From sequence record PP400778: 64,000 nt of DNA; one strand, written 5' to 3'. A program made the position numbers and the translations under genes. The DNA comes from Escherichia phage FL15. The notes beneath the pieces were generated by a model, which saw nothing but the letters and a program-made list of their open reading frames with translations, was not told where the DNA came from and ran no database searches. This document shows, one piece after another, positions 26,340 to 31,121 of the stretch. Numbering within the stretch: position 1 is the first letter of the stretch; the number at the start of each line of letters is the position of its first letter.

Positions 26340-27341
26340 TTAGTAATGGCTAAAACCTTCGGTCACATCTTCAACCACATAGTAACGATGACAGCGCATT
26401 TTGGCATTTGCATAATCTTTCGGGATACTTACAACGTGACGCGGATCAACTTTGCATTTAATGATTCGGCCTCGTCCACCGCCATAGTGCGGAATATAGT
26501 GTTTCGCTGCAACGTGGAGGCCATTAGAGCAAGTGCGATCATCATCTGGGTCCACGTCTTTACGCTTCATTTTAACCGTGCGACCTGGGCTATTATCAAA
26601 CGTATGCGTAAAGAAATCTTTATAATCAACATCAACACGTTTCCATGCATAGAAACAACCATCTTCCACGATCTCAATGTCGTTGTGCTCTAAGAAGTCA
26701 AATAGACGATCTACGGCCTTACGGCTAGGGTTTTTCTTGCACTTCTCAAAGAAGTTCAGATAGTGCGTATATGGCTTATTCTCTTTAATCGACTCCACAA
26801 CTCGACGAGTCAGATTATTATCAAGAACAATATTATGATAATACACAATACCATTTTCGATACGGAAAGCGCCGTGATAATATACTTCAACCGCTTTCTT
26901 AATGTCAATCAGCGTAATTGCTTTAATAAAATCATTCTGCTTAATTGCTTCCAGTGCTTCATTAAAGTTAACATGTGATGGATCAGCAGTATAAACAATG
27001 TCACCACATGTAATAGTAATAAACTTAGTTGAGGCTATGGCTACGATTTTTGAGGAAGTAGTCACGGGCTTTTTTGCGCGTTCACCGCCTTTTCCTTTAC
27101 TGGTTTTACGGCGTGCTTTACGTTTTTCTAGTGCCTTGCGACCTTCCGCTACTGCGTCTTTCTGAATCAGTAATACACGGGAGGCAGTACGACGAGATAC
27201 CCCAAATGCTGCCGCAAGTGCTTCGCGGGTAGTAAACTTACCTTCGCCCCACTGTTTAGCCAGTTTGATTTGTTTTTCAGAATCCAGGCATTGAACGTTA
27301 CGGTCAGAGACGGTGATTTTTGCTTTAGTCATAGTATTCAT
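26340..27341 (-). CDS. rIIB: rIIB protein
   Basis: 333 aa; C-terminal two-thirds match T4 rIIB (SRLFDFL..NDIEI.EDG.FYAWK, FDNSPG..VKM.R..V, CS.GLHV, PRDVVSIP.DY..AKMR); N-terminal region carries an HTH. Confidence 0.9.
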   Translation of the reverse strand: MNTMTKAKITVSDRNVQCLDSEKQIKLAKQWGEGKFTTREALAAAFGVSRRTASRVLLIQKDAVAEGRKALEKRKARRKTSKGKGGERAKKPVTTSSKIVAIASTKFITITCGDIVYTADPSHVNFNEALEAIKQNDFIKAITLIDIKKAVEVYYHGAFRIENGIVYYHNIVLDNNLTRRVVESIKENKPYTHYLNFFEKCKKNPSRKAVDRLFDFLEHNDIEIVEDGCFYAWKRVDVDYKDFFTHTFDNSPGRTVKMKRKDVDPDDDRTCSNGLHVAAKHYIPHYGGGRGRIIKCKVDPRHVVSIPKDYANAKMRCHRYYVVEDVTEGFSHY

Positions 27342-27394
27342 TCCTCTATTAGTTGGGCGACTATCGCCGCCCGATTCACATCATTATACCAGAA

Positions 27395-27526
27395 TTATTT
27401 TGCTTCCACAACCTTGCGGATTGTGCGGTCTGATACATTATAGATTCGTGCCAGTTCGCCTTTAGTCAAGCCGCGAGCGTATTGTTTACGGATGGTTTCT
27501 TTCTGGATAGCGGTCAGTTTAGTCAT
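27395..27526 (-). CDS. small helix-turn-helix protein (43 aa) between rIIA and rIIB
   Basis: ATG 27526 with AAGAGGTGA SD; MTKLTAIQKETIRKQYARGLTKGELARIYNVSDRTIRKVVEAK has a resolvase/IS-type HTH pattern; stop at 27395; a GGGCG...CGCCC stem-loop follows. Confidence 0.55.
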   Translation of the reverse strand: MTKLTAIQKETIRKQYARGLTKGELARIYNVSDRTIRKVVEAK

Positions 27527-27537
27527 AATATCACCTC

Positions 27538-29646
27538 TTAAAATTTAACATTCTTAACCAGTTTCATAAAGTCTTGTGCGCGTTTGTCGTTATGCAGAAT
27601 ACGATACCAGTTATCTACAATATCATACAGTAACGGGCTATTCTCTTTAAACTTCGCACAAACTGCTTTAATTCGTTCGTTTGCTGCCGTGAATTTTTCA
27701 TCACAGATCTTTTTAGTTTCTTCGTCCATAATCCAACGAGTATGAAGGAGTAACTTGGAAACCTCTTTATTATAATGACGACCGTACAGTCTGTCAATAA
27801 ATTCTGGAACACAGCGTTCTAGTTCATCGTCATGAAACAACATAGTGATCACACCCAGATATTCGCCATACCCCAGATGATTGGTCTTAACCTTCTTAGC
27901 CAGACCAGCCAGCTTACCGCGAACAAATTCTAGCGCACATTCCAATTGTTCGTCAACGAGATATTTTTGTGTCTCGTTACGAGTAATAATATACTTTGTT
28001 ACCCCGAAGTAGTCAAGCGCCGTGTGTAATGTATTTTCACTATAGATCGATTTACGACTACGGCTTTCGAATGCATCACCTACGCGGAACATGTGCAAGC
28101 CGGATAACTCGCGAATCTCTGCCGCTTTCATGTGATGGCTGGTTTTATGCCAACTGTCACCAATCTTTTCCATAATATACACGTTAGGCAGCTTAGGAGT
28201 CGCTTCACGTTGTGTACGCTCGGTCTTCTCCGGTTTAACTGCTTTAGCACGCAGATCATCGGCCTCAGACACTTTAATCACGGTCATTTCAGAATCATCA
28301 TAATACTGTTTGATGTACTCGAAAGTCTCCATATGTTTTTCGTTGCGCTGACGGAACACAAGTACCTTTTTATTGATGCCGTATTCCTGGACCATACCGT
28401 TAAGAGTCAGTGCACGCAGTTTCGGTTTATCGGTATCATCAATAAGACACGTAATATCTTCTTTATGCATCCATACAAAATGCGTAATGTTGTATTGACT
28501 GCTAACGAAAGCAGGGCGCAATTTACTGATTGTGTGACGAGTACGATACAGAGTATACACTTGACCTTCTACGTCATTAGGCGAATCTTTACCCGCATTC
28601 ACAAACTTATTATAGATTGCTACCGGATCGTCCCATTGCCCGACCTTACCCATCTTGCTAATAATATTGCGTTGAGTCGATGAATACTCGCTCATAAATT
28701 GCGCAAGTTTACGCTCTGTTTTAATGTTGGCGATCTTTTCTTTAACCTTTTCCAACATCATTTCATTTATTTCTGCAATACGTTTTTCGATGTTTGCTTT
28801 AGTCTCAATTGACAAGTGAACTTCTTCACGCGATGGCATCAGGTCCAGATCACCCAACTCAAAATTAATGTAAATGGTCTGGTGCTGGCGGTTTACAGCT
28901 TCTAACCATGTTCCGCGAACATATTCATACGGGATCGGATACTGGATCTTACCCATGATTGCATATACTACATAGGAATCGTTATCACGCCCATTGCAAA
29001 CATAATAATTATCAAAGCTAGGGAAATAATTAATTTCGATTGCATTGATATTAGGTTTGTGTTCCCCAAAATGACGAAGTACAAATTGTGCTTCTCGATG
29101 CCATGTCTGAATGTCTTTTTCTTTCACCGGAATAGTGATTTTCAGACCATTGTCTTCATAGGTCGGTTCGTCGAAAATCTGCACCATTTTCGGCATAGAG
29201 TTTTGCACAAATGCCGTAAAGCCATAAGCGCGACCATTGTAATAGTTTACGATTGTAAAGGTGTCAGTGTAGCTATAAGCAGATTTCGCACCTAAACCAA
29301 AAGATCCGATATAATCATTAGTTTGGTCTTTTGTTGATTCAAAGTAAACCGTAAACAGTTGTTCTAATTCTTTCTTAGACGGAATACCCGTACCATAATC
29401 ACGCACAGAGAAATAAGGTTCAATTGCGGTAGGCAAATGAATATCAAACGGACGATCTAAGGTTCCGGCTTCTTTGTGAGTGTCGGTAGCATTGCACGAA
29501 TACTCACGGACGCAAGCACGCTCACAATATTGATAAGTGTTCTTAGAAAGCACCATAAAAGCCTTGCTACTTGCTTTCAGAGAAAAATCAACCTCACCGC
29601 TCAAGTCACTGCCAAATACTTCTTCATTATCAATATGCATTTTCAT
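27538..29646 (-). CDS. rIIA: rIIA protein
   Basis: 702 aa; N-terminal region (GEVDF.LKASSKAF.VLS.N.YQ, SCNA.D.HK.AGTLD.PF..HLP.AIEPY) matches T4 rIIA; adjacent to rIIB. Confidence 0.9.
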   Translation of the reverse strand: MKMHIDNEEVFGSDLSGEVDFSLKASSKAFMVLSKNTYQYCERACVREYSCNATDTHKEAGTLDRPFDIHLPTAIEPYFSVRDYGTGIPSKKELEQLFTVYFESTKDQTNDYIGSFGLGAKSAYSYTDTFTIVNYYNGRAYGFTAFVQNSMPKMVQIFDEPTYEDNGLKITIPVKEKDIQTWHREAQFVLRHFGEHKPNINAIEINYFPSFDNYYVCNGRDNDSYVVYAIMGKIQYPIPYEYVRGTWLEAVNRQHQTIYINFELGDLDLMPSREEVHLSIETKANIEKRIAEINEMMLEKVKEKIANIKTERKLAQFMSEYSSTQRNIISKMGKVGQWDDPVAIYNKFVNAGKDSPNDVEGQVYTLYRTRHTISKLRPAFVSSQYNITHFVWMHKEDITCLIDDTDKPKLRALTLNGMVQEYGINKKVLVFRQRNEKHMETFEYIKQYYDDSEMTVIKVSEADDLRAKAVKPEKTERTQREATPKLPNVYIMEKIGDSWHKTSHHMKAAEIRELSGLHMFRVGDAFESRSRKSIYSENTLHTALDYFGVTKYIITRNETQKYLVDEQLECALEFVRGKLAGLAKKVKTNHLGYGEYLGVITMLFHDDELERCVPEFIDRLYGRHYNKEVSKLLLHTRWIMDEETKKICDEKFTAANERIKAVCAKFKENSPLLYDIVDNWYRILHNDKRAQDFMKLVKNVKF

Positions 29647-29660
29647 AATATAATCCTCAC

Positions 29661-29928: not shown

Positions 29929-30123
29929 TTATACATTTTCAATCACCCATTGCAGATGGGCTTCTGCGTCAACCAGTTCAGCGCGGCTTTTCTCTAAGCA
30001 CTTGCTGTATTCTTTACGTTCCCAATCAGCAATTTTGTTTTTCAGGACTTCTTCATAGTAAGCAATTACGCCTTTCAGGTCTGAAACTTTACGGCTTGCC
30101 AATTCGATGTAATGGTTACGCAT
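29929..30123 (-). CDS. hypothetical small protein
   Basis: 64-aa ORF with leader TTAGGAGAATCAAAAT. Confidence 0.5.
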   Translation of the reverse strand: MRNHYIELASRKVSDLKGVIAYYEEVLKNKIADWERKEYSKCLEKSRAELVDAEAHLQWVIENV

Positions 30124-30155
30124 TTTGATTCTCCTAAGTGGTATCTCGTTTCGAT

Positions 30156-30533: not shown

Positions 30534-30561
30534 ATTATAGAGAATCTCCCTTGTATGTCAA
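30534..30561 (-). promoter_or_regulatory. sigma70-type early promoter (TTGACA-16-TATAAT)
   Basis: Minus strand TTGACA (30556-30561) and TATAAT (30534-30539) with GGGAGA...TCTCCC inverted repeats around the -10. Confidence 0.5.
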
Positions 30562-31121
30562 CTAAAATTTAAAGATGCAAACTCCCCGTGATGAATTTTT
30601 GCATATTCATCATATGCTCTAGCGGCTTCCTCCTGAGTAGCAAACGATCCTATGTATTTTCTGTATCCGTTTATCCTTATTTGTGCTTGCCACGGTCTTT
30701 TGCTAGATCCTTTGCGATGAGTAACACCATTATATATGCTCGTGCACCCGTCCATTTTCTTTTTATTGTACATGTTTTGTTGTTGTGTTGCCTCCCGTAA
30801 ATTTGGTGGATTGTTGTTTTCTGGATTCCCGTCTATGTGGTCTATTACCTTAACCTGTGTTCCATATTCAAGAAACCAGACAATTCTATGTACAAGATAT
30901 GTAGATGTTCTCTTTTTAACCTTATTGTAAACATCTATTGCCAAATGACCGTAATTTAACTTTTTTGTTTTTACTTTATCACCGACTCGGTAGAAATATC
31001 CCTCTGGTAGACCATTAAAAGACGGACTATTTGTTTTGTGATATAGAACACCTTCCGTGTGTTCAAATCTGCGTTTTAATTCCTCTTGAATTTCAGTATT
31101 CCAAAATTTCGCACTTTTCAT
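30558..31121 (-). CDS. free-standing HNH homing endonuclease with AP2 domain (paralog of 6758-7321)
   Basis: 187 aa; LVHRIVWFLEYGTQVKVIDHIDGNPENNNPPNLREATQQQN and YNGVTH...WQAQIRINGYRKYIGSFATQEEAARAYD; begins 1 nt after the gp39 stop. Confidence 0.8.
   Translation of the reverse strand: MKSAKFWNTEIQEELKRRFEHTEGVLYHKTNSPSFNGLPEGYFYRVGDKVKTKKLNYGHLAIDVYNKVKKRTSTYLVHRIVWFLEYGTQVKVIDHIDGNPENNNPPNLREATQQQNMYNKKKMDGCTSIYNGVTHRKGSSKRPWQAQIRINGYRKYIGSFATQEEAARAYDEYAKIHHGEFASLNFS

Follow-up and report, generated by a model that had tools for sequence, protein, structure and literature searches.

Does the short ORF that lies between rIIA and rIIB in Escherichia phage FL15 encode a protein and, if so, what is the origin of this protein? 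The 64,000 nucleotides of FL15 DNA analysed here (sequence record PP400778), referred to below as the window, are closest in this region to Escherichia phages JEP8, MIZ5 and GEC-3S (99.8% identity), and RB49, Phi1 and JSE are 98-99.7% identical to it. Given these identities, the window belongs to Krischvirus, the RB49-like "pseudo-T-even" phages of the Straboviridae. The components of the rII locus are all encoded on the minus strand and are arranged as follows.

29646..27538, minus strand: rIIA, 702 aa, the upstream gene of the rII module (phrog_612, E 8e-188; annotated as rIIA in JEP8 and relatives)
27797..27769, minus strand: sigma-70 consensus promoter TTGACA-17-TATAAT in the 3' part of rIIA (consensus scan)
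27537..27532, minus strand: Shine-Dalgarno sequence GAGGTG of the 43-aa ORF (read from the sequence)
27526..27395, minus strand: 43-aa helix-turn-helix (HTH) gene, predicted free-standing paralogue of the rIIB N-terminal domain (PHROG 15481, Pfam CENP-B_N, dN/dS, AlphaFold2, rIIB N-terminal profile, hhalign)
27411..27383, minus strand: promoter-like site for rIIB, TTGTGG-17-TGgTATAAT (annotated as a promoter in GEC-3S)
27372..27355, minus strand: GC-rich hairpin GGGCGGC-GATA-GTCGCCC, between the 43-aa ORF and the rIIB ribosome-binding site (folding)
27332..26340, minus strand: rIIB, 330 aa (phrog_609, E 1.6e-106; 98% identical to Phi1 rIIB)
27290..27162, minus strand: the N-terminal HTH of rIIB itself, more divergent, about residues 15-57 (AlphaFold2 model; 28-33 bits with the rIIB N-terminal profile)

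The ORF starts with an ATG at 27526, ends with a TAA stop at 27397..27395 and translates as MTKLTAIQKETIRKQYARGLTKGELARIYNVSDRTIRKVVEAK. Its Shine-Dalgarno sequence adjoins the rIIA stop and lies 5 nt from the ATG; GAGGTG or GAGGTA is retained upstream of the small ORF in three divergent loci (L005, L007 and L090). The distance from the rIIA stop to the ATG is 11 nt and equals the gap between rIIA and rIIB in T4, where 11 nt lie between the rIIA stop (position 12) and the rIIB start (position 168903). Downstream, a 62-nt spacer separates the stop of the ORF from rIIB, and the reading frames of the two differ. The rIIB Shine-Dalgarno sequence, GAGGA, is located at 27346..27342, and the ATG at 27332, which follows after 9 nt, is likely to be the rIIB start, in agreement with the annotation in GEC-3S, W115 and JEP8; an alternative ATG at 27341 is disfavoured by the annotation of the relatives and by the GAGGA spacing. 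The first-pass annotation of this DNA had stated that T4 rIIA and rIIB abut, that a stand-alone 43-aa ORF with a strong Shine-Dalgarno sequence lies between these genes here, and that a GGGCG...CGCCC stem-loop precedes the rIIB start, and the coordinates given above bear out all three statements.

By tblastn, the ORF was detected in 58 phage records, exactly as many as match the locus at the DNA level, and the small proteins of these Krischvirus-like records are at least 97.7% identical. A large protein collection yielded four further divergent versions, 69-86% identical and all 43 aa long, and another version, of 45 aa, was reached via the neighbouring rIIB. A search for loci in IMG/VR with the single protein returned only near-identical phages, and an alignment-based search reached the divergent loci. 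In every retrieved contig (L004-L008, L090 and L091), the small ORF comes right after rIIA and, wherever the contig extends far enough, precedes rIIB. Altogether, five lineages, four of which are represented by metagenomes only, share an ORF of 43-45 aa at one position, and in each of them it is the only ORF called between rIIA and rIIB. The region is thus neither non-coding nor open in frame with rIIB: a separate ORF with its own stop is found in the 58 isolates and in the five lineages, and its frame relative to rIIB varies among the lineages.

An ORF this short could be spurious or non-functional, or could serve as a leader peptide of irrelevant sequence in the rIIA-rIIB spacer, and the databases are compatible with such a reading: the product is named "hypothetical protein" nearly everywhere ("DNA binding HTH domain protein" in phage W115), and PHROG 15481, which it matches over the full length (residues 1-43 on profile positions 1-43, E 3e-34), carries no functional assignment. 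The substitution pattern argues otherwise. Among the window, L004, L005 and L007, the differences in the small ORF are concentrated at third codon positions, with dN/dS of 0.04-0.30 at near-saturated dS of 0.9-2.3. The product is the most conserved protein of the locus, with 71-86% identity to the window across lineages, compared to 39-44% for rIIA and 54-65% for rIIB, and residues 21-41, TKGELAR[IV]YNVSDRTIR[KR]VVE, are invariant save for two conservative changes. Together with the strong Shine-Dalgarno sequence, the confidently modelled HTH fold and the significant homology to rIIB head domains described below, these features make a spurious ORF extremely improbable, and as far as sequence analysis goes it is excluded by dN/dS, conservation and the hhalign comparison. 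The 43-aa ORF is shown by these comparisons to be a real protein-coding gene under strong constraint.

Outside this clade, the junction was compared in 44 other Straboviridae loci with enough upstream sequence. The distance from the rIIA stop to the rIIB start is -8 to +72 nt in nearly all of these loci and 108-171 nt in four, and an HTH ORF between rIIA and rIIB is absent from all 44. The wide gaps (L054 3349-3458; L073 3356-3521; L086 3847-4019; L021 3462-3584) harbour ORFs unrelated to the HTH, namely two hydrophobic, membrane-like ones of about 33-39 aa, an acidic one (56 aa) and a fourth of 20 aa. Insertions recur at the rIIA/rIIB junction. At locus L092, which encodes the nearest rIIB beyond the clade (P0010, 53% identical), the gap is free of ORFs, and the order is rIIA stop, hairpin, promoter, rIIB. 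The free HTH ORF is confined to the Krischvirus-like clade.

The AlphaFold2 model of the 43-aa protein is a three-helix bundle (helices 6-18, 22-28 and 33-41; mean pLDDT 90.7), and the protein is basic, with 11 K/R against 4 D/E as counted from the sequence. In Pfam, PF04218 (CENP-B_N) is matched with 26.0 bits against a gathering cut-off of 21.2 (E 7e-6), a match that indicates the fold class only and is no evidence of a centromere or transposase role; PF02796 (HTH_7, resolvase; 18.3 vs 23.8 bits), PF04545 (Sigma70_r4; 21.1 vs 24.1 bits), HTH_28 and Mor all score under their cut-offs. The nearest solved folds identified by Foldseek are the DNA-binding HTHs of IstA, gamma-delta resolvase and CENP-B (TM 0.72-0.79), along with LuxR/NarL-type domains (TM 0.7-0.8); these are generic HTH domains, none with an E-value of 1e-3 or less, E-values not being significant for a model of such small size. 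A sequence search of the PDB with the family profile gave nothing below E 0.2. The C-terminal domains of gamma-delta resolvase and Hin and the N-terminal domains of IstA and CENP-B resemble the ORF product in size (about 40-50 aa) and fold, with an rmsd of 1.0-1.6 A for IstA and CENP-B (CENP-B structure 1hlv, TM 0.78), but the sequence identity between these tri-helical domains and the 43-aa protein is only 17-28%, and the recombinase and transposase HTHs belong to catalytic proteins whereas the 43-aa protein has no catalytic domain. Given that the tri-helical domains bind DNA as small independent modules, an HTH of 43 residues can do so as well.

The relationship of the small protein to rIIB becomes apparent from several directions. 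When all phages were searched by tblastn, the next-best matches after Krischvirus were the rIIB N-termini of Klebsiella phages (52.5% over 39 aa, E 0.02), and those of Serratia X20, CC31 and Bp7 were also among the next-best. The protein is 41% identical (16/39) to residues 7-45 of T4 RIIB and 35% identical (11/31; pairwise E 0.004) to residues 24-54 of the adjacent rIIB. A profile of six small proteins matched residues of about 5-45 in nearly all of 120 rIIB proteins, with a top score of 33.5 bits and the adjacent Krischvirus rIIB as the weakest rIIB match (E about 1).

An unbiased search of 1.84 billion representative proteins with a profile resulted in 304 matches at E up to 1e-3, which comprise stand-alone proteins of 49-56 aa, HNH endonucleases that end in an HTH and arrays of 2-7 HTHs in tandem. 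The top matches (P0126-P0138) are proteins of 220-720 aa with 4-7 tandem 'KLTxxQ...VSxxTI' HTH modules. The phage HNH C-terminal HTHs and the stand-alone HTHs, which share this motif with the ORF, obtained the highest single-domain scores (39-49 bits), and the best single domains among them, at 47-49 bits, exceeded the best rIIB head at 33.5 bits.

These matches suggest another source for the ORF, namely that a free-standing HNH homing endonuclease was once inserted between rIIA and rIIB and decayed until just the C-terminal HTH was left, which was subsequently co-opted or tolerated. Free-standing homing endonucleases often insert in this manner in T4-like phages; the best unbiased single-domain matches are HNH endonucleases (P0144, 48.8 bits; P0162, 46.8 bits), the HTHs of which share a 'KLTxxQ...Y.VS..TI' pattern; HNH endonuclease families are included, with weak E-values, among the PHROG matches; and an ORF judged by eye to be HNH-AP2-like lies 3 kb upstream in the window. 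This last ORF (187 aa; 31121..30558, minus strand; 0.9 kb upstream of rIIA) appears by eye to combine an HNH endonuclease with an AP2-type DNA-binding domain and is a candidate free-standing homing endonuclease. The higher scores of the HNH-linked domains, however, were obtained with a library some ten million times the size of the rIIB set.

Because some non-rIIB single domains outscored every rIIB head, a reciprocal test was performed with a profile of 116 rIIB N-termini, from which the four Krischvirus-like rIIB proteins were left out. The 187 segments tested were the HTH segments from the unbiased search, which had been chosen for similarity to the small ORF itself, together with the N-termini of the Krischvirus-like rIIB proteins and all six small ORFs. 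With 48-56 bits, the small ORFs took places 2, 5, 6, 8, 9 and 11 among the 187, whereas the HNH-linked HTH segments scored below 36.7 bits and fell outside the top 25; the Krischvirus-type rIIB heads themselves reached only 29-33 bits. The rIIB N-terminal profile thus prefers the small ORF over the HNH-linked and stand-alone HTHs, which fit it less well. Furthermore, HNH endonucleases carry a nuclease domain, but the ORF has neither this domain nor a remnant of it, with just 11 nt between the rIIA stop and the ATG, and in five lineages it is fixed in length (43-45 aa) and position and subject to strong purifying selection, unlike decaying endonuclease genes. On this evidence, derivation from an HNH endonuclease appears unlikely.

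When the same rIIB N-terminal profile was run against the six-frame translation of the 64-kb window, only two matches were obtained, the small ORF (51.3 bits, E 4e-15) and the N-terminus of rIIB (28 bits). Direct comparison of the small-ORF and rIIB N-terminal alignments with hhalign gave a probability of 99.3% and an E-value of 1e-20 over 41 columns. By these measures, the small ORF is an rIIB-type head domain, and a more canonical one than the head on the local rIIB; profiles and structural model agree in showing its predicted product to be a basic three-helix HTH of the type found in the RIIB head of T4 and other Straboviridae. The proposal that the gene is a duplicated or split-off N-terminal module of rIIB, made in the first-pass annotation together with the suggestion to align it with rIIB N-termini, is accordingly strengthened by the reciprocal ranking, the hhalign result and the window-wide search. 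The resemblance to the HTH of the adjacent rIIB, on which that proposal was built, is real at the pairwise level but weak, with a profile E-value of about 1, and the case becomes stronger via the rIIB proteins of other genera. Given that the small ORF is closer to the rIIB heads of other genera than to that of its neighbour, it is not a recent copy of the latter.

The head of T4 RIIB (about residues 4-48) shares with the ORF the sequence family, the three-helix HTH and the position 11 nt past rIIA. In T4 and other Straboviridae this head is fused to the core, whereas the Krischvirus ORF is free, with its own stop codon, and is parted from rIIB by a hairpin, a promoter and a new ribosome-binding site; the adjacent rIIB still bears a second, divergent HTH. 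No fused ORF-rIIB version was found in the 58 isolates or the five lineages and, given the lack of fusion to the rIIB core, the ORF product is best described as a paralogous free domain rather than an rIIB protein. Expression as a fusion through read-through or frameshifting was also considered and rejected, given that the ATG-ATG offsets differ among lineages (194, 202 and 197 nt) and that a promoter and a hairpin intervene. The gene itself is already present in databases and no paper on it was found in literature searches, so that its kinship to the RIIB head appears to be new within the literature searched.

The architecture of rIIB is consistent with a head that can be detached. In the AlphaFold2 model of the window rIIB, an HTH (helices 18-29, 36-42 and 47-56) is followed by a long helix, and both are joined to the core by a basic linker (residues 80-93) with pLDDT below 50; this low-confidence linker fits a separable head module. 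The core (residues of about 96-330; 26340..27047 in the window) has pLDDT above 80 in most blocks, and the search of the PDB by Foldseek produced no meaningful match for it, so that its fold is still without a solved relative. In one divergent lineage, L004, rIIB (P0009, 4685-6064, 459 aa) contains three tandem HTH copies in addition to the free ORF, the phiAS5-like rIIB P0080 also has tandem copies, and P0186, an rIIB of 775 aa, combines two HTHs with a large insert. In these three proteins the copies of the head reside within one polypeptide, in contrast to the free Krischvirus copy, which is a separate cistron; they show repeated duplication of the head domain in the rIIB family, in which its copy number is variable. 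As a separate observation, rIIA and rIIB form a single ORF of 1049 aa in L012 (1748-4897; IMGVR_UViG_638276010, 180,500 bp), which could be a natural fusion or a sequencing error, and PHROG 609 (1055 positions) similarly covers both rIIB and an N-terminal part that resembles rIIA.

Two promoter-like sites flank the small gene. The site inside rIIA (27797..27769) is a perfect consensus about 240 nt upstream of the ORF, promoter-like sites occur at the matching position (-236 to -283) in L004, L005 and L007, and this TTGACA-17-TATAAT sequence is likely to be the proximal promoter of the small ORF, for which it is a candidate on sequence grounds. The arrangement parallels that of T4, in which rIIB has promoters within rIIA. 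The putative promoter of rIIB has its -35 element, TTGTGG (27411..27406), inside the last codons of the ORF and an extended -10 element, TGgTATAAT, at 27391..27383; in L005 and L007, a consensus -35 element, TTGACA, is found in its place.

The hairpin follows this putative promoter. The 81-nt stretch 27400..27320, which includes the hairpin and other pairs, has a minimum free energy of -18 kcal/mol (z -2.4), and hairpins of differing sequence are present at the equivalent place in L004, L005, L007 and L090. In the five lineages the arms read GGGCGGC/GTCGCCC; GCGCCTC/GGGGCGC (with one G·U pair); ACGTCCTGA/TCAGGACGT; GCGTCCC/GGGACGC; and TGCGCCC/GGGCGCA. In L005 (2705-2769), L007 (2701-2768) and L021 (3462-3510), the -10 box of the promoter nearest to rIIB lies between GC-rich arms, for example as ACGTCCTGA-TACAAT-TCAGGACGT; the design with arms around the -10 box thus recurs in distant phages, one of which is without the small ORF. 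A hairpin and a promoter between rIIA and rIIB are also found in the relatives L092, L019 and L021, all of which lack the ORF, so that the hairpin is not special to the latter. It was not flagged in a terminator scan and has no U-tract or T-run, which makes a terminator role doubtful, and it is not a known RNA family, given that a search of 27200..27900 against Rfam gave no match.

An HTH protein encoded immediately upstream of rIIB might be a dedicated repressor or activator of the rIIB promoter that overlaps the 3' end of its gene, tuning the production of toxic RIIB. In every lineage, the promoter nearest to rIIB either overlaps the ORF or comes directly after it; in L005 and L007, its -10 box lies between inverted repeats; sigma-70 region 4 and Mor-type activators are among the HTH profile matches; and RIIB expression is toxic to E. 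coli (PMC10312443). The repeats themselves, however, are difficult to reconcile with such a role: their sequence varies from lineage to lineage while pairing is kept and the recognition helix is invariant, as would be expected of an RNA structure rather than an operator, and on these grounds we rejected them as the operator of the HTH. The hairpin-plus-promoter design, moreover, is shared with L092 and L021, in which the ORF is missing, and no conserved DNA motif was found around the promoter. A dedicated regulator of this promoter therefore seems rather improbable. Given that the arms in L005 and L007 flank the -10 box, the hairpin would form only in transcripts that come from upstream, and we interpret it as an element that marks the 3' end, or adds to the stability, of the rIIA/ORF transcript.

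A search for k-mers common to the five lineages revealed no operator-like site and recovered only the translation-initiation regions of rIIA and of another small gene. The first of these, TGAGGATTATATTATGAAA (29659..29641, minus strand, in the window; L004 2318-2336; L007 416-434; L090 1203-1221), is identical in four lineages although the rIIA proteins are just 39-44% identical, which suggests a translational operator, perhaps RegA-like, or another constraint at the RNA level. The second, the ribosome-binding region GGAGAATCAAAATG (30134..30121, minus strand, in the window; L090 6977; L004 8334; L005 70), precedes a small gene of 64-87 aa that is located upstream of rIIA in the window and L005 and downstream of the topoisomerase gene in L004 and L090, which points to relocation of this gene.

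With these alternatives weighed, the 43-aa gene is probably a duplicated or split-off rIIB head that persists in the rII module as a small DNA-binding protein acting in trans and is expressed early, together with rIIA. Its origin from the 5' end of rIIB is suggested by several features: the 11-nt spacing, a free copy that is canonical in sequence, a fused copy that has diverged and a hairpin-promoter arrangement of the L092 type. Under this scenario, a copy of the head domain would have become a separate cistron by one of two routes: (i) tandem duplication of the HTH followed by fission or (ii) recombination after which the first 43 codons of the resident rIIB were followed by a second rIIB allele that brought its own hairpin, promoter and HTH. 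By either route, the free copy would have retained the canonical sequence and the copy fused to rIIB would have diverged; some 40 residues are too few to resolve the origin.

The gene would then be expressed early, as the final cistron in the transcription unit of rIIA, in transcripts from the rIIA promoter and from the consensus promoter inside rIIA, with the hairpin marking or stabilising the 3' end of the rIIA/ORF transcripts and rIIB served by its own promoter just downstream. The protein may bind DNA, or the ligand of the RIIB head, in trans and could serve the rII anti-defence module as an accessory component or regulator; the invariant helix 2-turn-helix 3 points to one conserved target. 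A more speculative extension, which we regard as quite unlikely, is that the detached head is an arms-race device that uncouples the function of the head, namely the binding of DNA or of a partner, from the sensed or toxic body of RIIB, or a decoy or competitor that modulates RIIB activity or sensing by the host. Should this be the case, the rII module would be a three-component system in the Krischvirus-like clade.

To our knowledge, DNA binding by the RIIB head domain has never been demonstrated. In the classic genetic-code experiments, frameshift combinations at the start of the T4 B cistron were tolerated, as was the r1589 A-B fusion, and this tolerance fits a separable head domain. It does not establish that the head is dispensable, given that a fusion mutant similar to r1589 is sensitive to rexAB (PMC8594841). 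Iyer et al. (2021; PMC7824862) counted rIIB among the specific transcription factors on domain grounds, and RIIB has been reported to counter RexAB, to be toxic if expressed and to trigger the bacterial CARD/gasdermin defence (Wein et al., 2023; PMC10312443).

The locus described here is a modest architectural variant of the known rII system and not a new kind of element; it is of moderate interest to rII specialists, and the gene is otherwise an ordinary small HTH gene, annotated in databases as hypothetical. A single small gene, or a peptide of 43 residues, would be a simple reagent for finding the binding partner of the RIIB head. The rII locus is the textbook two-cistron system, and here a clade appears to keep the RIIB head as an extra gene; given that this separate head gene is more conserved across the clade than either rIIA or rIIB, the head would be an independently functional module.
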